From the NCBI GenBank assembly GCA_963770895.1, contig CAVYRF010000002.1, forward strand, positions 2,560,001-2,624,000: a DNA stretch of 64,000 nucleotides. The letters run 5' to 3'. Positions 3,909-16,222 of the stretch are shown here, piece after piece (positions within the stretch are counted from its first letter, which is position 1; every line of letters begins with the position of its first letter). The notes beneath the pieces are model-generated. The model saw nothing but the letters and a program-made list of their open reading frames with translations. It searched no databases and had not been told where the DNA came from. The DNA is from an uncultured Acidobacteriota bacterium (GTDB taxonomy: Bacteria; Acidobacteriota; Thermoanaerobaculia; Multivoradales; UBA5704). The position numbers and the translations under genes were made by a program.

Positions 3909-4324
3909 TCACCGGCCCGTGCGGGCCGCAAGCAACCTGCGAAGGCTTATAAGGAGCCATTTTATTGGAACCTGGAATGGGCGCAAATACCAGAAGCGCC
4001 GCGACATGTAGGACCTCATCAGAGTGTCGCGCCAGCGATTGGCTGCGGCTTCGCGCACGTTGTAGTCTTTTGATAGCGCTCGGTCGATGTGATGACCGAT
4101 CTCGTGATAGAGGGTTCGCGACACAAGGGCTTCCCGAACTGCACTGCGCCGCAGAAGCCATACGGGCCAGCCATGAGCAATGGCGTCAATGTAGAGGTCT
4201 ATAGCCGCTGCCCTCGCAGCCCCTGGAGACGAGCTGAAGGCACGGCTTGCACCAGACACTCAACCGTCCCATGGAAGTCGATTGGTAGGTTGAACGTCCC
4301 AAAGTCATCAACAACTCGCACCAT
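3909..4324 (-). pseudogene. Disrupted HEXXH (zincin-like) hypothetical gene
   Basis: An N-terminal fragment MVRVVDDFGTFNLPIDF...VPSARLQGL (ATG 4324, TAG 4199-4201) and, in another frame, a C-terminal part IDLYIDAI...LYHEIGHHID...RRFWYL to 3909. GC is lower than in the flanks. Confidence 0.5.
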
Positions 4325-4409
4325 CGGAGGTTTCTACGTCCTTTTCCCGTGGTCCCAGGGTAGACGGCTGGATCACGCCGGCGGCCATGGGTACCAGCGG
4401 TGACCGATC

Positions 4410-4964
4410 CTAAACCCAGCGCTCGATCCCAAGGCTACCGAGCTCGCCCGCGAGTGCATGAATCTCCTGCTCGCGCGGGGTATACACCTCCATGTAGTTG
4501 TCGTGGCTTGTGTAGACGACCAAGGCCGCCGGGATTGAGATCACATGTGCGTCGAAGCCGAATGCGATTGCCAGGCGTGCCATGCCAAGTGCCAATGCAT
4601 ATTCCGTCTCGTCAAACAGGTGGCAAGGCGCTTCCTTGATCCAGCGCCGTTCTCCGTATCCGGCGCGGACTGCTCTCCACAAATCAGCGAAGCCGCCCCC
4701 CCTGACATCCCAATCCAAAAGCCAGATCGCCCATGACCTGGCACTTGGAGCCGCTTGAAACAGTGTGTCAACCAGCCTCGCTTGCAGGACTGAGGAATCC
4801 GGCAATTTCAGCTGAAGCGCTTCCGACTGAACTTGCGCAGGCAACGCCGCGCCGTCAGTCGACTGCTGGGACAAAATAAAACCCGCATAGAGATCCTCCT
4901 CATCCATCTTGATCCCTCGCGCTAGCAAGTAGGCGGAGCCCTCAGCAGCAGTAAGGCATATCAT
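4410..4964 (-). CDS. Hypothetical protein, putative immunity protein for the RHS toxin
   Basis: 184 aa (MICLTAAEGS...SHDNYMEV...), first gene downstream of the RHS C-terminal toxin and inside the same low-GC island. The function is inferred from position only. Confidence 0.6.
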   Translation of the reverse strand: MICLTAAEGSAYLLARGIKMDEEDLYAGFILSQQSTDGAALPAQVQSEALQLKLPDSSVLQARLVDTLFQAAPSARSWAIWLLDWDVRGGGFADLWRAVRAGYGERRWIKEAPCHLFDETEYALALGMARLAIAFGFDAHVISIPAALVVYTSHDNYMEVYTPREQEIHALAGELGSLGIERWV

Positions 4965-5161
4965 CGTGGTCTCATCCTGGTCAGATTCGAAAAGGCCTGG
5001 TGCAATGGCGAGAACGCCTGGCCCAGGTCCTCTGCGAGCTGGCACCGAGCATCAGCAAAACTTCGTTATCTATTAACATGCCTAGTCTCGCTTCCTAGCG
5101 CGCCAAGAGCGCGAGAAAAATCAACCCTGTCGCCAAGGCAGGTTCGGAAAGTGGGCGCAAG

Positions 5162-8100
5162 TTAGCCACTTGAGCCATCCGTCGAAGGTGCCAGCGGACA
5201 GCCGGGTAAGAACGGCAGTAGTATGCAAGGGCTAATAATCGGAAATAGCATTGGAGCAAAAGGATCTGGAGGTTCGATGCCGAGGGGCGCGTCTTGCGGA
5301 GTTGGCGCTGGGTGTGCCTCCGAATCTGGGACTTCATTGCCAACTTCATCCAACTTCCAGGATCTATTGCCATCGTTCAGGTCCCAGTGATCTTTGCCGA
5401 TTGCACGTCTGCCACCAGGATTGAATGGCCCCTTAGGCTCCTTGTGCCAGCTGCACTCGAGCTGAGTACCTGGGATTTTCCACTTTCCGCCACGCTTGTC
5501 TTGAGGATTGTTGATCCAACGCCAAGTCCCATTGGGCATCTGCGGCACCCCCTGCGGCTGGCCTTCAGGTGTTGTTGGTCCATAACCGGGGGGCAGCGGT
5601 GACGGTGGACCAGGCGGATGCGGTGTCCATCCGTCCGGATCGAATAGGTTGAGTGGGTCGTTTAAAGAATACGCATACAGATCGGAGCCAGCCGTTGCTG
5701 CGCCATCGCGGCTTTCCCAGCGGCCCAGATTGGGGTCGTAGGCGCGATATTTGGTCAGGTTGAGGCCGGAGGGCGAGTGGTAGTACTGGCCGGCGAAGCC
5801 GAAGCGGGGCGGGGTGCCCTGGTTGATGGTGAGGCGGCCCCAGGGGTCGTAGTCGTAGCGGCTGACGACGGTGCCGCTGGTGTTGGTGACTTCGCGGACG
5901 CTGCCCAGGTGGTCGTAGGAGAAGTAGTAGTAGCTGGGGCCGGACTGCATGCCGTTGGGGAAGAAGCGGGTCAGGATGTTTTCGTTGGGACAGGTGATGG
6001 TGTCGACGCCGGGGATGGCGGTGGCGGTGCCGCCGTAGTGCACGCTGATCGAATGGGCGGAGCCGGTATAGATCGAGAGTGTCGAGTAGGTGAAGCCGTG
6101 ATCGCCGTTGCCGATGCCGGCGTTGAGCAGGTCCTGGCGGAAGGTGCCGGCGGCGATGGTGGCAAGCAGGGTAGTGCCATCGTAGATGTCGACATCGATG
6201 GCATCGTTTGGTTCATTGGCATCCCAGGCCCAGCCGGCGATCTGGGTGCAGTCGGCGGCGTCCAGGTTGCCACCGAAGCTGGGGGCCGGGCAGGTGAGAT
6301 CGATGGTGCCGCCGATGGGGATGCTGGTGCCACCGATCTTGAGCGAAACGGTGTGCTGAGTGTTGGTCTTGAAGGCGACCGGGGTGTTGAAGAAGAATCC
6401 GTGGTTGCCGTTGCCGATGCCGGCGTTGAGCAGATCCTGGCGGAAGGTGTTGGCCTGCACGGCGGCGACCGGCGTGGTGCCGTCGTAAATGTCGACATTG
6501 ATCGGCGCATCGGGCTGGTTGGCGTCCCAGGCCCAGCCGGCGATCTGGTTGCAGTTGGCGGCGCCAAAGGAGCCGGAGAAGCTGGCCTGGGCGCAGGTCA
6601 GGGTCTGGGTGCCGAGCACAAAGGTGCTGCCGCTGGGAGTTACGGTGACGGTGTGCGCGGCGCCGGTCTTGAGCGATGCCGGGGTGTTGAAAAAGAAGCC
6701 GTGGTTGCCGTTGCCGGCGCCGGCGGCGCGCACGTCGGCGCGGAAGGCGCTGGCCAGGGTGGTGGCGGTCTTGGTCGAGCCGTCGTAGATGTCGACGTCG
6801 ATCGGCGCGTTGGGGGTGGCAGGGTTCCAGGCCCAGCCGACCAGCTGGTCGCAGTGGATGTAGTTGACCCCGCCCAGGGGCACCGGTCCGAGGCCGGGCG
6901 CGGTCGTGGCGTCGGTCTCTTCGGCGATCTGATCGCCGATCCAGATGTAGTGGCGACTGGTCTGCGCCACGCCGTTCAGCTTTTCGGTGATCTGCACCCG
7001 CCGGCCCAGGCCGTCGTAGGTGAACTCGCTGCGCTGGGTGCCGATGTTGATCGCGGTCAACCGGTTTTCGGCATCCCATTCGTAGGTGCGGGTGCCGTCC
7101 GACAGGACGTTGCCGTTGGCGTCGTACTGAAACGCCGCACCGCCGGCGGTGGTCACCACGGCGGTGGCCAGTGCCTGCACCTGCGGGTCGGCGTGGCTCG
7201 CGGCCGTGATGGTCACCGCGCCGTCGGTCGAAGGCGCGGTGAACAGACCGGTCGGGTCGATCGTGCCGGCCGAGGCCGACCAGGCGACCGTGGTGTCGGC
7301 GGCGCCGGTCACGGTGGCAGTGTACTGCTGCATCGCGCCGGCGGCCATGGGTACCTCGGCCGGCGTGATGCTCACCGATACAGCTGGAGCGGTGCTTACC
7401 GTGATCGTGACCACCCCCTGCACCGGACCTCCGGCGTCGGTCGCCTGGGCCACGACGTGGTAGACGCCCGGCGTCGCCGGGGCGGTGTAGACGCCGGAGC
7501 TGGAAACGATGCCTCCGCCGGCGCCCTCTTCGACGCTCCAGGCGACGGCCGGATTGATCACACCGCTGACCCGGGCGGTAAACGTCTGGCTGGCGCCCGG
7601 CGCCAGGCTGGCCGACGAGGGCAGCAGGATCAGGTCTTCGCCCACCGTGACGGTGCCATTGCCGGACTTGGTCGGATCGGCGGCCGAGGTGGCGGTGACA
7701 GTGTAGACACCTGGCGTTGCCGGAGCGGTGAACAGACCGTTGGCGGCGATCGCCGCCGGCGCCGGCCCGGCCACCGACCAGGTGACGGCCTGATTGGGGT
7801 GCGGCGCGGCGTTGACATCTTCGACCACCGCTGTGAATGGCTCCTGCTGACCGGAGTCGATCACCGACCGCGCCGGCGATACGGCGACGCCGGCGACCGG
7901 CATGGCGCTGTCGACCGCGACCTGTGCGGTGCCGGTAGCCGCCACCGGCCCACCGGCGGTCTGGGCGGTGACTGTATAGGTGCCGGGCGCAATCCCCGCC
8001 GGGATCTGCAACGCTCCGGCGGAAGAGACGGTACCGCCGGGCATATTGGTAGACCACTCCACCGCCTGCTGGCTGCCGGTGACGTCGGCCGCAAACTCGA

Positions 8101-8809
8101 CCGCGGAGCCGGGCGTGGCCACGACCATGTTCGGCGTGACCATCATCACGACCACGTTCACCGTTGCGACCGCCGGATTCAGGCCTTCGTTGACATCGTC
8201 GTCATTGGTTACATAGACATGGAACACGCCGCCTGGCTGGTTGACAAAGTGTTCGTATACGCCTGTCGGACCGTCTCCGAAGCCTCCGCTTCCGACGGCT
8301 TGCCCGTTGGGATCGTCGGTGAACCAGATGTAAGAAGGGTTGGTCGAATTGACCACGCTGGCGGTGAAGGTCACAGGCTGGATGCCGGCGACCGTCGCAC
8401 TGGTGGGCGAAATGGAGGTCGTCGGCGGCGCCGGGACCGTGATCGGAAAGGAAGCGGTGACCGAGTCGGCACCAGCGTACAAGACGAAATATCCCTGGGT
8501 CGTACCCGCGGTGACCGTAACCTTGTTGCCATTGGGTGCCAGCGTCAGACCGGTCGGCGGGACGACCGACCAGGTGATGGGGTCGAAGATGTCGTACACG
8601 TTCGCGGTATACACCTGCGATTCGGTCTGATCGAGGATTGATGGACCGCTGATGGTGATGCTGGGCGGCTGCGCCGCCAGACGCGGCCCAGCTGCCCAAA
8701 CCGCTCCAGCCGCCGCCAGCGCCATCAGCACACGACGCATCCGCGGCCACCGCCCACTCCGCCCGTTTCGGTCGCCGGCGCCGGCTGCCGCCAAGATCTC
8801 AGTTTTCAT
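5162..8809 (-). CDS. RHS protein part B: signal peptide, 6 Ig-like domains, terminal YD repeats with 3 inserted beta-rich repeats, RHS-associated core and C-terminal toxin
   Basis: AAGGAGG then ATG 8809. Signal peptide RRVLMALAAAGAVWAAGPRLAA-Q. YD motifs YDANGNVLSDGTRTYEWDAENRL and YDGLGRR. Core DHLGSVR...YDYDPWG...FAGQYY...YRAYDPNLGRW...NDPLNLFDPDG. Confidence 0.9.
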   Translation of the reverse strand: MKTEILAAAGAGDRNGRSGRWPRMRRVLMALAAAGAVWAAGPRLAAQPPSITISGPSILDQTESQVYTANVYDIFDPITWSVVPPTGLTLAPNGNKVTVTAGTTQGYFVLYAGADSVTASFPITVPAPPTTSISPTSATVAGIQPVTFTASVVNSTNPSYIWFTDDPNGQAVGSGGFGDGPTGVYEHFVNQPGGVFHVYVTNDDDVNEGLNPAVATVNVVVMMVTPNMVVATPGSAVEFAADVTGSQQAVEWSTNMPGGTVSSAGALQIPAGIAPGTYTVTAQTAGGPVAATGTAQVAVDSAMPVAGVAVSPARSVIDSGQQEPFTAVVEDVNAAPHPNQAVTWSVAGPAPAAIAANGLFTAPATPGVYTVTATSAADPTKSGNGTVTVGEDLILLPSSASLAPGASQTFTARVSGVINPAVAWSVEEGAGGGIVSSSGVYTAPATPGVYHVVAQATDAGGPVQGVVTITVSTAPAVSVSITPAEVPMAAGAMQQYTATVTGAADTTVAWSASAGTIDPTGLFTAPSTDGAVTITAASHADPQVQALATAVVTTAGGAAFQYDANGNVLSDGTRTYEWDAENRLTAINIGTQRSEFTYDGLGRRVQITEKLNGVAQTSRHYIWIGDQIAEETDATTAPGLGPVPLGGVNYIHCDQLVGWAWNPATPNAPIDVDIYDGSTKTATTLASAFRADVRAAGAGNGNHGFFFNTPASLKTGAAHTVTVTPSGSTFVLGTQTLTCAQASFSGSFGAANCNQIAGWAWDANQPDAPINVDIYDGTTPVAAVQANTFRQDLLNAGIGNGNHGFFFNTPVAFKTNTQHTVSLKIGGTSIPIGGTIDLTCPAPSFGGNLDAADCTQIAGWAWDANEPNDAIDVDIYDGTTLLATIAAGTFRQDLLNAGIGNGDHGFTYSTLSIYTGSAHSISVHYGGTATAIPGVDTITCPNENILTRFFPNGMQSGPSYYYFSYDHLGSVREVTNTSGTVVSRYDYDPWGRLTINQGTPPRFGFAGQYYHSPSGLNLTKYRAYDPNLGRWESRDGAATAGSDLYAYSLNDPLNLFDPDGWTPHPPGPPSPLPPGYGPTTPEGQPQGVPQMPNGTWRWINNPQDKRGGKWKIPGTQLECSWHKEPKGPFNPGGRRAIGKDHWDLNDGNRSWKLDEVGNEVPDSEAHPAPTPQDAPLGIEPPDPFAPMLFPIISPCILLPFLPGCPLAPSTDGSSG

Positions 8810-11800
8810 GGCCGCCCTCCTTGACCGCGCCCGAGGGGGTCTTGGCAACGGTTCCATCCTGCGGAGGGCCCGGCTTCGCGGAGCGCACGCGCTCCATCTG
8901 CACCGCATTCTGCGCCTGCCAGGCCAGGCCGCTCTGCAGCGTGATCAGCTGGTTGGCTCCGTCGAAGGTCGCCGTCGACAGCGCGCCGTCGATGATCTCG
9001 CTGGTGCGGTTACCCGTGGCGTCGTAGGTGAAGGCGTTGTTGTGCAGCGTTGTCACCGGCGACTGCACCGGATCGGTCGTCTGCTGCCGTGCCAGCAGCT
9101 GCTGCGCTCCGTCGTAGGTGAAGTCGAAGAAGCGCCCGCCGGGGTTGTTGAGGTCGTGCCAGGTCAACCCCACGATCTGCTGGTGCGCCGGGTCGTACGA
9201 GTAGTTGAACTGCGACAGGTTGTAGCCGTTCGTCGTCGATCCCCAGGTGAGCTGCGACAGCCGGAAGTCGTGCGCCACATCCAGGTAGCTGTAGGTGGGC
9301 CCCTGTCCGTTGGGGTACGAAAGCGCCGTCATGCGGTTGGACGATCCGGCGTACGACGCGGTGAACCGGCCGAGCGGGCTGGTCATCGTCGCCAACCGGT
9401 CCTGGCTGTCGAAAGTGCGCGTCTGAGCGATCCCGTCGAGCGTCTGCCCGACCTGCCGCCCCAGCACGTCGTACTGATAGGTGATCGCATGGTTGGGCGC
9501 CGGCGCCGTTACGCTCGCAACTTGCCCAGCCCCCAGGACACCCCCGGGATTGTAGGTGTAGGTTGTCGTGCCGATCCCGTCGGTCATCGACAGAAGCCGC
9601 GGCAGGTTCAGGTCGTATTCGTACTGCACGCCCGGCGTCGGATGCACTGTGTTCTGATAGCTGGTCGCCGCAAGCAGATTGTCGATGGTGTATGCATAGT
9701 TGGTCACCTGGTTGAGTCCGTCGGTGCGGCGCACCAGGCGGCCGGCGCTGTCGAAGCTGTACTGTGCCACCGTCTGGCCGTTGACCTGCTTGCCCACCAC
9801 CCTGTTCAATCCGTCCAGCATCCAGGTCGTCAGGTTGCCGCGCGGATCGGCCACCTGCGACAGCGCTCCGCATCCGCACCACGAATAGGTCGTCGTACGC
9901 CCCAGCGGATCGGTGATCGACATCAGACGGTCCGCCGCATCGTAGGCGTAGGCCGTCACTCGCCCCAGGCGGTCCTGCGCCGCTACCACGTCCAGACGGT
10001 TGAACACCACCTGGTCGGCGGAACCGTCCGGGTAGGTGATCTCGATCAGACGGTCCAGGTTGTCGTAGCGGAAGCTCAGCGTGTAGCCGTCCGTCGAGGT
10101 CCAGGTGGCGAGCCGGTTGGCGCCGTCGTAGGTATAGCTCTCCTGATACTGAGTGCCGGCGACCGCCACATTGGTCAGAAAGCCCCGGCCGTCATAGGTG
10201 TAGTTGGTCGTCACGCCGTCCGGCCGCTTCGCCGAAGTGAGCTCGCCAAAGGCGTTGTAGGTCATCGTGTAGGTCTGCCCCGCATCGTCCGTGTAGGTCA
10301 GCGGCCGGTGGTTGCCGTTGTAGGTATAGCTCGCCACCGTCTCGTGCACAGCGTTGATCACCGTCGACACGTCGGCGTAGCTTGGCGGCGCGTAGATAAA
10401 TGTGGTCTTGCGCCCGGCCGGATCGTAGGTCCACTGCGGTCTGCCGGCACCGTCCAGCGTGGCGCTGTAGACCTGTTGCTGGCCATTGTCCAGCACCCGC
10501 GCCACTGTGCTTGGCGTCGACAGCGTCCCCTGGTAGCTGTCGGCCGTCTCCCCAGGATAGGAAAACCACAGCCGCCGCTCCCCCTGCGGCTGCATGAAGC
10601 CGGGAATCGACGACACCGCCGTTTCGCTCTCCGTCGCGTCACGCACCCAGTGGATCGTGTAGGTGGCGTTCAGATACCGGTTGGGATCCGACGGGTTGTA
10701 GCTCTGCATCGCCGTCTGGTTCCAATAGTAGGTATTGCGGTACGCCAGGTTCTCGTTGCCGAAGCCGGCGGGAATCGGCTCGGTGGTGGTTTCGGGGATG
10801 TTCTGCGCCTCGTGCGTGAACTCGATCCGCTCCGTACTGCCCAGCGGATCCGTCGCCACCAGCCAGCGGCTGTCGCCCAGATCCGTATTGACGCACGGAG
10901 GCGCCTCACCCATGCCGAAGCTCGTGGTGCCGTAGGGCGTCGTCATCGCGTTCATGAAGTCGGTCGGAACGCCGAACGCTCCCGTGCAGAGCGGACCCGG
11001 CGGCTCGGTCGCCAGCGGTCCGTAAGTGAACGACGAGGTCATCCCCACCGCATCCGTGATGCTCTGCAGCTCGCCGTTCGCATACTGGAACACCGCCTGC
11101 CGGCCAAACGGATCGGTCACCGCTGTCAATTTGTATGGATCGCCGGACAACCCATAGCTGAGCGTCGTCTGCTGCCCCACCGGATCGGTGATCGTTACCA
11201 GGCGCATCGATGCGTCATAGGTTAGGTTGACCGAGTTGCCATACGGATCGGTCGCCTGGGTCAGGAAGTATTTGCGCATCGTGGTCGCGCCGTCCGACTG
11301 GCCGTAGGTTTCGACTGCACCGTCCGGGTAGACGCGCTGGAACCCCGTCGTGTTCGGACCATTGAGGGTATCCTGCACAAGGCGCATCGCGGTCTCGTGC
11401 GAACCGCCGATGTTGGGACCGTACTCCCACCATAAAGTGGTCGACACCTGGCTCAGGATGTAAGAGCCGCCGCCGCGCTCCGCCACGCGGATCGTGCCGC
11501 CGGTCTGCAAGGGATTGTCGTCTTCGACGTAGGACAGCCAATCGAAGTTCCAGCGCGAACCCAGGTTGGTGAAGAGGAACGTCTGCGGCTGGAAGTCTTC
11601 GCGGCTGTTGTAGGTGATGCCGAACCGCATCGCCGGACCGACCGGCGGCGTGTAGCCCACCGGCTCGTCGGTGACGTTCAAGCTCACCGGCGCGGTGTGG
11701 AAGTTGTACACCGGCATGCCGGTGTTCGCGCCGCCGCACTGCCCCGGCTTCTTGGGGTCGGCCGGCGTGGTCGCCCCCGGATTGGGATTGGCTGCGGCTC

Positions 11801-12830
11801 CCTGGCCGTGCACCCCTGCCGCTTCGGCCTCCGCCACCTCCCTCCACCCCTGGCGCGGCACGCCCCCCGGCACCGCGGCCAGCAGGTAGCCCGACGACTC
11901 CTCTTCGACCGCTGCGCGGCTCAGCCAGTGATCGTCGCCAAAGGTCAGATCCTTGACCAGGAACCGGTCGCCCTGCTGCGCCACCACCGCCGCGAAGTGG
12001 TCGGCCTTCCAGTGCAGCACCGCGGGCACCGGAATTGGCGACCCCGGCTCGCGCTTGACCGCGTACAGGCCCAGTCCGGTCTGCCGCGCGAGCTTCACCA
12101 GCTCGCCCAGCGAGGTGCCGCGCTTCGTCGATCGGTACCGCAGCACCCGCGGATCGGGCGCCGCACCGGGATGCAGCACTTCCGCCACGCGCTCCACTGC
12201 CAGCGGCCCGCAGCGGAACGAGCTGCCCGGGTCGTGTCGCATCTCCCACAGGCTGGAGCGCGCCCCCAACACCATCTCGGCGACGTGACCGGAAAGCGGC
12301 CTGGTCGCCGCCACATCCAGCAGCGCCGCCAGCGCATCGGTGCGCCCCAACGAAGCATCGATCTCGATCTCGACCGCCAGAGCCGCGTCGGCGATCTTGC
12401 GCGCCGCAGGGTCGGTGGACGCCGCCGCGCGCCGCCACGCCGCGCTGGCCGCCGCCAGCGCCCGGTCCAGGTAGCCGGTGTGGCGGTAGAGCACCGCCAG
12501 GTCGGCCTCGAGAGACGGCGCCCAGGCCGAGCCCGGGTGCCGTTCCAGGAAACCGGTCAGCGGTTCGACCGCTTCGACGTCGGCCGCCGCCCGGTAGGCG
12601 CGGATCGCCGCGGCCAGCTCGCGCGTCTCGTCTGCCGCGGGCGCCCCCACCGCCACCAGCGGCTCCGCGAAGGTCCGCCCCTCTTCCGGGCGATCCAGCG
12701 CAGGAGGAGCACCGCCCGGTGCCGCCAAGACCATCGTATCGCCGGACGCCGCGGGCATCGCCCCCGCCGCGCCCGCCAGGAGAGTTGCCGGACCGACCAA
12801 CATCAGCATCACGCCGAGACGCAGATTCAT
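8799..12830 (-). CDS. RHS protein part A: signal peptide, helical region, C39-like cysteine peptidase and YD-repeat shell, with no RHS core
   Basis: Signal peptide MNLRLGVMLMLVGPATLLAGAAGA. C39 motifs RCGPLAV, GTSLGEL, LHWKADHF, LVKD. Many YD repeats (YDASMRL, YDNLDRL, YDAADRL, YDVLGRQ, YDATGNR). No PxxxxDPxG. The stop overlaps the part B start by 11 nt. Confidence 0.9.
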   Translation of the reverse strand: MNLRLGVMLMLVGPATLLAGAAGAMPAASGDTMVLAAPGGAPPALDRPEEGRTFAEPLVAVGAPAADETRELAAAIRAYRAAADVEAVEPLTGFLERHPGSAWAPSLEADLAVLYRHTGYLDRALAAASAAWRRAAASTDPAARKIADAALAVEIEIDASLGRTDALAALLDVAATRPLSGHVAEMVLGARSSLWEMRHDPGSSFRCGPLAVERVAEVLHPGAAPDPRVLRYRSTKRGTSLGELVKLARQTGLGLYAVKREPGSPIPVPAVLHWKADHFAAVVAQQGDRFLVKDLTFGDDHWLSRAAVEEESSGYLLAAVPGGVPRQGWREVAEAEAAGVHGQGAAANPNPGATTPADPKKPGQCGGANTGMPVYNFHTAPVSLNVTDEPVGYTPPVGPAMRFGITYNSREDFQPQTFLFTNLGSRWNFDWLSYVEDDNPLQTGGTIRVAERGGGSYILSQVSTTLWWEYGPNIGGSHETAMRLVQDTLNGPNTTGFQRVYPDGAVETYGQSDGATTMRKYFLTQATDPYGNSVNLTYDASMRLVTITDPVGQQTTLSYGLSGDPYKLTAVTDPFGRQAVFQYANGELQSITDAVGMTSSFTYGPLATEPPGPLCTGAFGVPTDFMNAMTTPYGTTSFGMGEAPPCVNTDLGDSRWLVATDPLGSTERIEFTHEAQNIPETTTEPIPAGFGNENLAYRNTYYWNQTAMQSYNPSDPNRYLNATYTIHWVRDATESETAVSSIPGFMQPQGERRLWFSYPGETADSYQGTLSTPSTVARVLDNGQQQVYSATLDGAGRPQWTYDPAGRKTTFIYAPPSYADVSTVINAVHETVASYTYNGNHRPLTYTDDAGQTYTMTYNAFGELTSAKRPDGVTTNYTYDGRGFLTNVAVAGTQYQESYTYDGANRLATWTSTDGYTLSFRYDNLDRLIEITYPDGSADQVVFNRLDVVAAQDRLGRVTAYAYDAADRLMSITDPLGRTTTYSWCGCGALSQVADPRGNLTTWMLDGLNRVVGKQVNGQTVAQYSFDSAGRLVRRTDGLNQVTNYAYTIDNLLAATSYQNTVHPTPGVQYEYDLNLPRLLSMTDGIGTTTYTYNPGGVLGAGQVASVTAPAPNHAITYQYDVLGRQVGQTLDGIAQTRTFDSQDRLATMTSPLGRFTASYAGSSNRMTALSYPNGQGPTYSYLDVAHDFRLSQLTWGSTTNGYNLSQFNYSYDPAHQQIVGLTWHDLNNPGGRFFDFTYDGAQQLLARQQTTDPVQSPVTTLHNNAFTYDATGNRTSEIIDGALSTATFDGANQLITLQSGLAWQAQNAVQMERVRSAKPGPPQDGTVAKTPSGAVKEGGHEN

Positions 12831-13017
12831 GCCATGCTCCCTTCGAATGCGATCACAAACTCTTTGTGGGAGCGGCGCAAAAAGGCCCCGCTCCCATCGG
12901 CTCCGACTGCCCGATTCCGCTTCAGGCATGTATACGGGCGGTGAGTAAATAAGGTTACACGAATTTCTTGCAACGATGGGTAGCCGCGGCCCCTTGGCGG
13001 GCTCGCGGAGCCCGATA

Positions 13018-13042: not shown

Positions 13043-13165
13043 GCGCTCCTGAAGCTTCTCGCGTTCGTGGTCGGGAGTGGTGTTTTCGATCTGGGCGCGG
13101 ATCTGCTGGACCCGGCCGGCGATCGCTTCACGCCGCTTGGCGTTCCCGGAGTTGGTGACAGGCCG

Positions 13166-14999
13166 CTAGCTGCGGCCGGCGCTCCACTGCGCGGTTTCGG
13201 CGGCGCAGACCTCGTCGAGGGGGCTGGGGACGGACAGCCAGTTGCCCTGGGCGTAGTCGACCCCCAGGGCGCGCAGGCGATCGACCGCGGCGCTGCCGGG
13301 CACCATCTCGGCGACGGTCTGGATGCCCATGACGTGGCTGACCTGGTTGATCGATTCCACCATGGCGCGGTCGAGCGGGTCGTTGACGATGTCCTTGACG
13401 AACTTGCCGTCGATCTTGAGGAAGCTGACCGGGATGTCGCGCAGGTAGGAGTACGACGACATGCCGGTGCCGAAGTCGTCCAGCGCGAAGCGCACGCCGA
13501 TCGCCGACAGGCCGCTGATCAGGCGCTCGGCCTGCTGCAGGTTTTCGATGGCGGCCGTTTCGGTGATCTCGAAGCAGATCTTTTCGGGCGGCACGCAGGC
13601 GGCGGCCAGCTCGTCTTCGATGTAGCCGAGCAGGCTTTCGTCCGACAGCGACACCGCGGACAGGTTGATCGAGCAGGTGTCGAGCGCCTGCAGGAACTGC
13701 GGCGGCTGGGCTGACAGGTTGCTGGCGCAGGTGTGGATCACCCAGCGATCGAACGCTGCGCATCAGGCCGTAGCGTTCGGCGGCGCGGATCAGCTCGCTC
13801 GGCAGGTGGACCCTGCCGTCCTCTTCGATCATGCGCAGCAGCACCTCGAAGAAGATGCCGCGCCCGGCGCCGGCGCCCAGCGGGTGGATGCGCTGGCAGA
13901 AGAGCCGGAAGCGGTCCTGCTCCAGGGTCTGGCGGATGCGCAGCACCCAGTTCATTTCGCCGTGGCGGCGGATGAAGGTGGCGTCGTCTTCCTGGTAGAC
14001 CTGGATGCGGTCGCGCCCCTTCTCCTTGGCCACGTAGCAGGCATGGTCGGCGGCGGACAGCAGGTGGGCGATCGACTTGAAATCGCGGGTGATCGGCACC
14101 AGGCCGATGCTCGCCGCGACGGCAAAGGATTTGTCCTGCCAGTTGAAGCGCAGCTGGCGCAGGGCGCGCTGGAGCTTGCGCACCTGCCCTTCGGCGGCCA
14201 GCAGCGAGGTGCGCGGCAGCAGCATGCCGAATTCGTCGCCGCCCAGGCGGGCCACCGGGCCGCTGTCGCGGATCACGTCCTGCAGCAGGGCGCCGACGCG
14301 GCGCAGCAGCTCGTCGCCGGCCAGGTGGCCGCAGGTGTCGTTGACCAGCTTGAACTGGTCCAGGTCCATATAGCAGAGGGCGTGGGTGGTGCCCTCGCGG
14401 GTGGTCTCCTCCAGGCAGCGCTGGAGGTGGCTGTCGAAGGCCTGGCGGTTGAACAGCCCGGTGGTTTCGTCGTGGCTGGCCTGGTGGGCCAGCTGCAGCG
14501 CCAGCAGGCGCTTGTCCGACACGTCCTGAAACACCAGCACGGCGCCGATGATGCACGCGTCGTGGTCGCGGATCGGCGAGCAGACGCTTTCGATGGCGTA
14601 GCGCCGCCCGTCGCGCCGTTCGAGCGTCAGCCGCTCCGCCAGGCGGACGCTCACCCCCTGCGCGACGGCGCGGCGCACCGCGTCGGCGGCGCTGGTGCCC
14701 TGGGCGGCGCCGCCGTCCGCTTCGCCTTCGGCCCCTTCCGCCAGGCGGAAGACTTCGTGCAGCGGGCGGCCGGCGGCCTCTTCGCGCGTCCAGCCGGTGA
14801 TCCTTTCCGCCACCGGGTTGAGGTACTTGACCACGCCGGACGGCGCGGTGGTCAGCACGCCGTCGCCGATCGAAGCCAGGGTCACCTGGGCCAGCTCCTT
14901 TTCGGCGTAGAGCTCGGCCATCTGCTCTTCGTAGGCGCGGGTGGTTTCGGCGAGCAGGCGGCGCACGATCGCCAGCTCCAGGTGGTCGGGCTGGCTCAT
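13166..14999 (-). pseudogene. PAS-GGDEF-EAL c-di-GMP enzyme with a +1 frameshift (real lesion or sequence error)
   Basis: PAS (LASIGDGV..NPVAERITGW), DLDQFKLVND, ARLGGDEF and FFEVLLRM are in one frame. The EAL remainder (DRWVI, SINLS, FEITET, ALDDFGTG, KIDG, AQG) is in another frame, after an extra base at 13752-13753 (AGC GTT CGA T.. instead of AGC GTC GAT). Confidence 0.85.
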
Positions 15000-16222
15000 G
15001 CGGCCGCGCGCTCCGACAGCAGCACCAGGATCGCCGTCTGGTTGTAGAAGGCCAGGTCGCCCCGGTCGGTAGGACCGATCTCGGCGAAGGTGAAGAAGCC
15101 GGACAGGGCGGCGCCGCCCAGGGCGGCGGCGATCGACGCCGGCTCGACGCCGGCGCTATCTCCCAGAACCACCTCGCGGCCGACGCAGGAATAGAGGATC
15201 GCCGCTTCCGGCCGACCGGCGCTCGCGGCGGCCGCGGGGGCGGCGGAGGCGCCGGCGGCGGCGGCGGTGCGCGCCAGCGACAGGTCGTTGCCCATGCCGA
15301 GCCGCACCCGGTCGCCGGTTTCGATGCTGCCCCAGAAGGTGACGGCGCCCGGCGGCTGGTCGAAGAAGCGCATGCTGCGATAGACCCCCTGGCGGTCGGC
15401 GCCCGGCCCTTCCAGGATCAGCGGAAAGCGGTAGGCGGATTCGGGCATCGGCGCCAGCTGGCCGTCCACCGTGAAGAAGCGCCGGTACCAGTCGGTCGCG
15501 GCGACGCCGTCGATCTGGAACGCGACGTTGCCGGCGGCGCGGTCGACGGTATAGACGGGCGACGCCGGGTCCCAGCCGCGCACCACTTCGATGCGCATCT
15601 GGACGCCGTGGAACAGCACCGCCAGGCAGGCCGAGGCCAGCACCCGCTCCTGGAAGAAGACGCGCGCGCCGGGCTCCGACACCGGTTCCCGTTGCGAGGC
15701 CAGGCCGCCGGCGACCAGCGGCTTGACGGTCCCCCCCGTTCGGCCCGCGCCGCCGGGCGCTTCGCCGCAGGCGGCAAGGTGATGCCGCAGGTCGGTCAGG
15801 AACCGCTCGATGGGGAAGCGCAGGCCGTCCACCAGCAGCAGGGCGCCGTCGGCCGCCGCCAGCCGCCGGGCGAGGGCGGCCGAGCGCTCGGCCGGCGGCG
15901 GCGATTGGTGGCTGCCTTCGATGACGTCCACCGCGGTGCTGTGGCCGGGCACCGCGAACCAGAACAGCTGCACGCTGCCCGAGCAGGTCAGCGCCTGGTC
16001 CGCGAACTGCGTCACCGCCTCGCAGCCGAAGCGCAGGCTGCCCGGCCACAGGGCGGCCATGGTGGCGAGCGTCGCCGGCAGGTGCTCGTTGGCAGGCAGG
16101 AAGGCGAGCGCCAGGTCGGGCTGGTGACCGCGCAGCGCGCTGGTGGGGGGCAGTTCGCCCGCTTGGCGCAGAAATTCCGCGGGACAGGGTCCAACGGGCA
16201 GCTGGACAGTTCGGCTGTGCAT
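14996..16222 (-). CDS. FIST_N/FIST_C signal-transduction protein (NosP-like)
   Basis: LLVDGL, VAGGLAS, GWDP, and C-terminal LYSCVGR...GFFTFAEIGP...FYNQT; ATGA overlap with the downstream GGDEF-EAL gene. Confidence 0.85.
   Translation of the reverse strand: MHSRTVQLPVGPCPAEFLRQAGELPPTSALRGHQPDLALAFLPANEHLPATLATMAALWPGSLRFGCEAVTQFADQALTCSGSVQLFWFAVPGHSTAVDVIEGSHQSPPPAERSAALARRLAAADGALLLVDGLRFPIERFLTDLRHHLAACGEAPGGAGRTGGTVKPLVAGGLASQREPVSEPGARVFFQERVLASACLAVLFHGVQMRIEVVRGWDPASPVYTVDRAAGNVAFQIDGVAATDWYRRFFTVDGQLAPMPESAYRFPLILEGPGADRQGVYRSMRFFDQPPGAVTFWGSIETGDRVRLGMGNDLSLARTAAAAGASAAPAAAASAGRPEAAILYSCVGREVVLGDSAGVEPASIAAALGGAALSGFFTFAEIGPTDRGDLAFYNQTAILVLLSERAAA

Follow-up and report, generated by a model that had tools for sequence, protein, structure and literature searches.

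The 64,000-nucleotide stretch of an uncultured soil Acidobacteriota genome analyzed here (the window) carries on its minus strand two long open reading frames (ORFs), occupying positions 5162-12929 in the ORF listing, which we call gene A and gene B. Between them they encode the parts of an RHS polymorphic toxin: A provides a C39 peptidase-like domain and most of a YD-repeat shell, while B, which overlaps the end of A, provides the remainder of the shell, the RHS core and the toxin behind a signal-peptide-like N-terminus of its own. We consider it probable that A and B each form one half of a single Sec-dependent RHS polymorphic toxin, derived from an old fission within a family of single-chain C39-RHS proteins. 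The features of the locus, in the order of translation, are the following.

8799..12830 (-), gene A: signal peptide, helical N-domain, C39 peptidase-like domain, YD shell and tail
12744..12830 (-), signal-peptide-like N-terminus of A, residues ~1-29 (hydrophobicity/charge heuristic)
11874..12212 (-), C39 peptidase-like domain, A 207-319 (Pfam Peptidase_C39)
8928..11693 (-), YD-repeat shell part of A, residues ~380-1301 (Pfam/NCBIfam repeats and sequence matches to solved structures)
8802..8927 (-), tail of A, residues 1302-1343, without counterpart in single-chain forms
8799..8822 (-), junction, read from the sequence: AAGGAGG at 8822-8816, B ATG at 8809-8807, A TGA at 8801-8799
5162..8809 (-), gene B, 1215 aa from the ATG at 8809
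8672..8809 (-), signal-peptide-like N-terminus of B, residues ~1-46 (hydrophobicity/charge heuristic)
7145..8668 (-), six Ig-like (Big_2/PKD-type) domains, B 48-555, four of them Pfam-supported, boundaries drawn by eye
6902..7144 (-), YD repeats predicted to extend the shell of A, B 556-636, the best-conserved part of B
5978..6901 (-), three tandem FN3/Ig-like beta-sandwich domains, B 637-944 (AlphaFold2 (AF2) model and Foldseek)
5627..5977 (-), last YD repeats and RHS-associated core, B 945-1061, ending PLNLFDPDGW
5165..5626 (-), polymorphic C-terminal toxin, 154 aa, B 1062-1215, following the core and containing an invariant His-Trp-Asp
4410..4964 (-), candidate immunity gene, 184 aa from the ATG at 4964, in a low-GC stretch shared with the toxin end of B

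Translated from the ATG at 12830, gene A encodes 1343 aa, and its protein begins MNLRLGVMLMLVGPATLLAGAAGA. This N-terminus is short, charged and hydrophobic (the 12-mer from residue 7 has a mean Kyte-Doolittle (KD) value of 2.21) and is followed by small residues. Peptidase_C39 (PF03412) was matched at residues 207-319 with 25.9 bits in the whole protein and 28.4 bits in the N-terminal part alone (cut-off 22), and C207, H278 and D294 were invariant in 52/52 aligned homologues, split and single-chain alike; we take these three, with their His-Asp spacing of 16, to be catalytic residues. Since they are kept in both forms, the role of the C39-like domain is not tied to the split. A weak PDB alignment with the double-glycine protease 6mpz (E 0.66) places H278 opposite the His of its NHF motif. 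The domain lies after the signal peptide and before the RHS shell, and Pfam and NCBIfam searches found no transporter domain around it in A, an arrangement that differs from the architecture of ABC-exporter leader peptidases. The shell part of A runs to ~920 residues, with RHS_repeat (PF05593) matched in seven stretches (E 2.6e-50) and TIGR01643 matched as well, and neither Pfam nor NCBIfam detected an RHS core domain in A. The last repeat ends ...YDATGNRTSEIIDGALSTATFDGANQL, and a 42-residue tail follows. Within the shell there is also a W-C-x-C-G motif (residues 984-988, window ~9867-9881), of which W984, C985 and C987 are invariant in a 15-sequence alignment; this could be a disulfide or metal site.

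The N-terminus of B is of the same kind. All full-length B proteins examined (the six copies in the window's own genome with an intact start and 11 database proteins) have a signal-peptide-like start: it is positively charged, contains a hydrophobic 12-mer (mean KD 1.8-3.0) and has small residues immediately ahead of the first Ig-like domain. These features are missing from two truncated proteins (p7 and P0095). An alternative, shorter start of B at the ATG at 8740 would yield MRRVLMALAAAGAVWAAG... The Ig-like units, read by eye from the sequence pattern, span residues 48-126, 127-222, 223-300, 301-388, 389-471 and 472-555, and Pfam/NCBIfam matches (Big_2, PKD, I-set and Ig_3) support 4/6 of them. 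YD repeats then resume (578-608; PF05593 E 4.1e-12, TIGR01643 also matched), with 20 invariant positions in residues 562-609 across 21 sequences. The shell part of B is broken at this point by an insert of ~308 residues (637-944) made up of three domains of ~100 residues, each with two conserved Cys, for which the AF2 model has a predicted local distance difference test score (pLDDT) of 93.8 and matches triple FN3 arrays in Foldseek (E ~1e-9); Pfam gave no match at E up to 5, and ESM Atlas scores reached at most 0.77. Many proteins with matrixin, reprolysin, subtilase, glucose dehydrogenase or beta-helix domains carry this module, 40-53% identical, at their C-terminus, and the module looks like an unannotated mobile extracellular module for binding or spacing. 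The core follows (Rhs_assc_core, TIGR03696, at B 987-1060, E 1.1e-17), with B 960-1061 aligning with the C-terminal end of solved Rhs cores and with D1025 and D1057 invariant in 21 sequences. Its last residues, PLNLFDPDGW, ending at residue 1061, form a predicted cleavage motif, matching the autoproteolysis consensus of Rhs cores, PxxxxDPxG(W/L/F), given in the accessible text of PMC8765631. The division of parts that a first-pass annotation of the window had described (A with signal peptide, C39 domain and YD shell and no core; B with its own Shine-Dalgarno (SD) motif, Ig domains, core and toxin) is thus borne out, and both ORFs are open throughout; the insert in the shell part of B had gone unmentioned there.

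At the junction the two ORFs overlap by 11 nt in different frames, and AAGGAGG lies 6 nt 5' of the ATG of B. The window's own genome (8.16 Mb in 3 contigs, 95% complete) holds seven such pairs (the window's pair and p2-p7), always in the order A then B and with B directly after A; their A copies are 63-71% identical to the A of the window and their B copies 59-64% to its B. The same 11-nt ATG...ACTGA overlap is found in five of them (the window and p2-p5), and p6 has a 4-nt ATGA overlap. Overlaps of 4 nt (ATGA or GTGA) occur in six loci altogether: p6, one locus in the related genome G005, two in G011 and two on Holophagaceae contigs. In the G005 locus and both G011 loci, A is again followed by B through a GTGA overlap behind a GGAGG-type motif, and such a motif lies 5' of B in the four junctions of the G005/G011 and window types that were inspected. 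In every intact pair the stop of A overlaps the start of B. Two pairs in the own genome look damaged: in p5 (G000:C2:653032-660581) two frames are needed to read A around residue 176-179, owing to a frameshift or an assembly error, and in p7 (G000:C2:5442927-5449723) A 1199-1343 and B 1-129 have been lost and the remnants are out of frame.

In total, the split layout was found in 12 loci of five genomes at 40-71% identity, with A and B adjacent in 12/12, and matches to A and to B were confined to the same 4/41 genomes (the own genome and three of 40 relatives, one of which has only fragments on short contigs). The two Holophagaceae contigs (L031 7985-13813 and L076 7836-12884), which represent a deeper split lineage, show ~40% identity to A and a GTGA overlap. 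Their B chains are longer (>1683 and >1943 aa, with the ORFs still open) and begin with a signal peptide followed by Kelch-like repeats, which indicates that the outer part of B is modular. Short-read contigs from two soil runs (X1 and X2) span 8634-9047 and 8742-9200 with 0 differences and 0 gaps, so the check for an indel across the junction that the first-pass annotation had called for came out clean; no contig of run X6 matched the junction stretch, and a metagenome scan with A returned only three loci, too fragmentary to show adjacency. Comparison of these loci shows that A and B are translationally coupled and conserved as a pair.

A search of 5.8 billion proteins separated the relatives of A into two classes: short forms of ~1285-1367 aa (42-87% identity), annotated “YD repeat-containing protein,” and long forms of ~1500-1760 aa (35-39% identity over 93-97% of A), annotated “RHS repeat-associated protein.” The long forms are single-chain proteins, and when A and B were compared with 42 of them by BLASTP, the segments were exactly colinear. 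With P0030, for example, A 52-1301 corresponds to P0030 62-1282, B 556-635 to P0030 1285-1364 and B 945-1060 to P0030 1368-1484, with no shell segment missing and none duplicated. The break therefore lies between two consecutive repeats, and the earlier statement that B takes up the shell at the next repeat proves to be exact. A accounts for ~81% of the shell-plus-core length and B for the last ~200 residues (~80 of shell and ~115 of core), with ~560 extra residues at the break (tail, signal peptide and Ig array). No relatives of 2352-5000 aa with >31% identity were found, i.e., there is no fused A-B form on record.

The single-chain C39-RHS proteins have the same helical N-region, C39-like Cys/His/Asp, shell, core and polymorphic C-terminus as A and B combined, but in one polypeptide, without a second signal peptide or an Ig array at the break and, in most cases, without the insert before the core. 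When one genome per species was scanned, 538 related C39-RHS loci were confirmed, in Acidobacteriota, Verrucomicrobiota, Alphaproteobacteria and other groups; 79 of these loci were kept. In 50/79 the end of A and the core lie in one frame without a stop (the single-chain class), and in typical loci of this class the three segments are directly contiguous. In 4/79 (L028-L031) the end of A and the core are 3.2-5.5 kb apart in different frames, with Ig-like sequence between them, and one further locus (L076) is split, with B running off the contig. The rest comprise one locus with a frame change beside an ambiguous base (L036), five in which the core was not found (four with little downstream DNA) and 18 that do not include the end of A and are unclassifiable. 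Additional sequence, in frame, is present in a few single-chain loci at the split site (L035, L063, L064 and L073) or at the insert site (L044), so both sites tolerate insertions. In a FastTree phylogeny of the A-homologous columns, 22 short and 30 long forms were divided by one branch (Shimodaira-Hasegawa-like support 100, one change), which is compatible with one fission event. We found no published study of N-terminal C39-RHS proteins, nor of a split Rhs shell outside the Tc toxins (supplements not covered), and the accessible text of Zhang et al. (2012) treats C39-type domains as C-terminal toxins only.

The seven B proteins of the own genome have differing C-termini: in close pairs, identity is 80-100% as far as residue ~1000 and 12-43% beyond it. 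Variation in B thus follows the classical Rhs pattern and is confined to the toxin tip in close pairs. Orphan pieces of B lie downstream of three pairs (G000:C2:1555283-1556872 at p3, C2:2989084-2989587 at p2 and C2:649358-649840 at p5), starting at B 547, 893 or 384; they have no signal peptide and little or none of the Ig array. The piece at p3, an ORF of 755 aa, contains the whole shell piece, the inserts and the core, and its toxin is related to that of the window.

The anatomy is best read as that of two chains that would form one cocoon after separate Sec export. Each chain, still unfolded, would be directed through Sec by a signal peptide of its own; in the periplasm, the YD strands of B would extend the open beta-spiral of A, and the core of B would spiral inward and close the shell around the toxin of B. 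The aspartyl autoprotease of the core would then cut after PxxxxDPxGW, while the six Ig-like domains and the three FN3-like inserts would remain on the exterior of the shell, serving as adhesin or spacer; more speculatively, the assembled particle might exit by a secretin-type pathway. Diversity would arise by recombination that swaps the toxin tip together with the immunity gene, as in other Rhs loci. The specific proposal that the cocoon is assembled after export, with the short shell piece of B completing the open spiral of A by beta-strand complementation and trapping its own toxin, is one we regard as evenly poised.

Several points weigh against the two-halves reading. The signal peptides of A and B were called by a hydrophobicity/charge heuristic only, and the contigs that span the junction come from one study, possibly the window's own source. 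The tree is unrooted, and its short class was set by length (<1400 aa), with the downstream gene inspected for a subset. Two of the seven own pairs (p5 and p7) are damaged, i.e., not all copies are maintained, and no conserved dedicated secretion partner was found beside the pairs. The most serious alternative, though an unlikely one, is that A and B act independently, A as a toxin-less shell or secreted protease and B as an adhesin-toxin whose short YD/core part serves autoproteolytic release, with no shared cocoon. Each protein does have an export signal of its own (by the same heuristic), and B holds all of the elements of toxin release (core, PxxxxDPxGW motif and toxin); however, its ~200 residues of shell and core, compared with ~1080 in the single-chain relatives, are too few for a shell, and A would be left as a shell without a closing core. 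Independence also sits poorly with a break placed exactly between consecutive repeats, with strict adjacency at all 12 loci and co-occurrence in the same four of 41 genomes, and with translational coupling.

The first-pass annotation had gone further and proposed that a constant A pairs with exchangeable, separately encoded B chains. The high conservation of the first YD segment of B makes cross-pairing between paralogues conceivable, but no stand-alone full-length B, which that annotation had suggested looking for, turned up in the own genome or in 40 relatives. Each B stands beside its own A, and the A copies are themselves ~30-37% different from that of the window; the orphan pieces come without the signal peptide and with the Ig array mostly or wholly absent; and variation in close pairs is limited to the toxin tip. 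Subunit swapping is therefore quite improbable, and this part of the earlier proposal was not upheld. A programmed +1 shift at the overlapping stop, which would yield one fused polypeptide and make the split only apparent, is less probable again. B does lie in the +1 frame of A with an SD-like motif upstream of the stop, and the prfB frameshift site loosely resembles this combination of SD-like motif and stop; but the SD lies 6 nt from the ATG or GTG of B, as in ordinary initiation, the type of overlap varies by lineage (11 or 4 nt) while the start codon is kept, and the signal-peptide features of B, needless for an internal segment, are kept in all full-length homologues. We give least credence of all to a sequencing or assembly indel, or a recent pseudogenizing frameshift, in a single-chain gene. 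Assembly into three contigs suggests, as a guess, long-read data, which can carry indels, and p5 and p7 look damaged; yet the same split recurs in 12 loci of five genomes at 40-71% identity, the ~560 extra residues at the break go beyond a simple frame change, and the short-read contigs show no indel at the junction. The conserved split layout and the gap-free contigs exclude such an artefact or recent frameshift for practical purposes. A designed split of the shell into two chains, which the first-pass annotation had argued for over a frameshift, is strongly supported: overlaps and SD motifs are conserved across the loci.

The toxin itself gave no Pfam match (B 1061-1215, E up to 5), and a search of 1.84 billion representatives yielded only 10 relatives at E<=0.001. 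In 18 sequences, His-Trp-Asp (B 1141-1143) is fully or almost fully invariant, and the surrounding motif, PHWD..DG.GN.......AH, is a candidate H-N-H finger; that the toxin is a nuclease would be a guess. Its AF2 model is confident over residues 10-110 and mostly beta, and Foldseek against PDB gave no match at E<=0.001. VIA-align offered leads only, i.e., levivirus coat proteins (Z 3.8, the best), an Enterobacter cloacae CdiA-CT (3.0) and colicin E3 (2.9). A family assignment by ESM Atlas was set aside, as its scores of 0.90-0.91 were to mixed clusters (Tox-HNH-EHHH at 10-25% of members, Ntox37 and Ntox17) that are probably not one family. Many of the toxin tips end in a Pro/Cys-rich hydrophobic tail in their last 30-40 residues (...PMLFPIISPCILLPFLPGCP here, e.g., 5165-5290, and ...CIICPECCAVVALATL in p3).

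The ORF at 4410-4964 is likely the immunity gene: a 45%-identical homologue lies ~3 kb downstream of p4, whose toxin is related to that of the window. Its only Pfam match at E up to 5 was at chance level. G+C, at 0.64-0.74 around the locus, falls to 0.58-0.59 across 4001-6000, a range that includes the toxin end of B and this ORF. A 116-aa ORF at 3909-4259 (-) carries a metallopeptidase-like YHEIGHH, has a 44%-identical counterpart downstream of p5 and may be a second gene of the cassette. Apart from immunity-like ORFs and orphan pieces, the neighborhoods of the seven pairs have no genes in common.

In keeping with the observation in the first-pass annotation that no secretion partner is adjacent, none is conserved beside the pairs, and TssC (PF05943) had no match in the 95%-complete own genome, while an E. 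coli control was matched, and neither A nor B has a PAAR or related Pfam match. VRP1 (PF03538, TcA) was likewise not matched in the own genome, but its control was matched in no genome either, so that this search is uninformative. The own genome does contain Omp85-family genes, which imply a diderm envelope, together with two secretins and two genes of the F type of the type II secretion system (T2SS), one of these ~7 kb from a secretin. A scan for promoters and terminators gave 0 promoter-like and four terminator-like sites, with no excess over shuffles. Immediately upstream of A on the same strand (13128-16222) are two genes, one PAS-GGDEF(-EAL remnant) and one with a FIST domain, neither of them shared with the other six pairs. 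Other very large RHS genes are present in the genome (G000:C1:591458-596878, C2:4905149-4936054 and C2:5807730-5826840, with open frames reaching 4228 and 4048 aa); their matches to A lie within 801-1288 only (the repeats, at 28-38% identity), and none reaches the C39 region. From its sequence, the own genome is rich in RHS toxins.

Set against other RHS systems, the pair has the repeats, core motif, variable tip and candidate immunity gene of an RHS polymorphic toxin, and departs from the usual form in not being one polypeptide. In the accessible text of PMC8765631, TcB/TcC is the only RHS shell described as two-chain, the other Rhs structures compared being single chains, and in that cocoon the remainder of the shell comes from the second chain, which also bears the aspartyl autoprotease core, and the toxin lies inside. 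The layout of A and B, read from the genes alone, fits a two-chain cocoon of this kind, with core and toxin on the second chain, and YenC2 and TccC2 match the core of B weakly (E 7.9e-5 to 1.6e-3). The break in A/B, however, lies near 81% of the shell, whereas TcC contributes roughly the last third. Tc subunits are not known to carry signal peptides, and their assembly is cytoplasmic; A and B both have Sec-type signals, and assembly would follow export. A also carries the C39-like domain and B the Ig and FN3 arrays, and there is no TcA-type gene among the conserved neighbors; the SpvB domain and beta-propeller of TcB were not searched for. The best solved matches, both for the repeats of A (E 4e-22 to 2e-15) and for the core of B, are Rhs effectors of type VI secretion systems (T6SS) (RhsA, Tse5, Tse15 and the Salmonella and Photorhabdus Rhs proteins), which share the PxxxxDPxG(W/L/F) motif and an encapsulated polymorphic toxin but, unlike A/B, are single chains with PAAR- or VgrG-linked N-termini and no signal peptide. 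WapA-type toxins of Gram-positive bacteria provide a case of signal-peptide-dependent export of an RHS polymorphic toxin, as proposed here for A/B; these are single-chain, wall-anchored in monoderms and without a C39 domain or split.

Judged by its genes, A/B would thus be a second natural two-chain RHS design after TcB/TcC, and what would be new is a different RHS family, a different position of the break, a signal peptide and an adhesin-like array on the second chain, and inserts within the shell. If the cocoon is indeed assembled after export, the design would have evolved independently of the Tc toxins and would be the first in which encapsulation necessarily takes place outside the cytoplasm. 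Export signals on both halves raise the question of how a toxin is enclosed when shell and cargo cross the membrane separately, and the pair would offer a natural two-piece system in which to study the folding, closure and opening of the cocoon. The parent family of signal-peptide-bearing C39-RHS proteins, which is widespread in soil and gut phyla, deserves attention as well.

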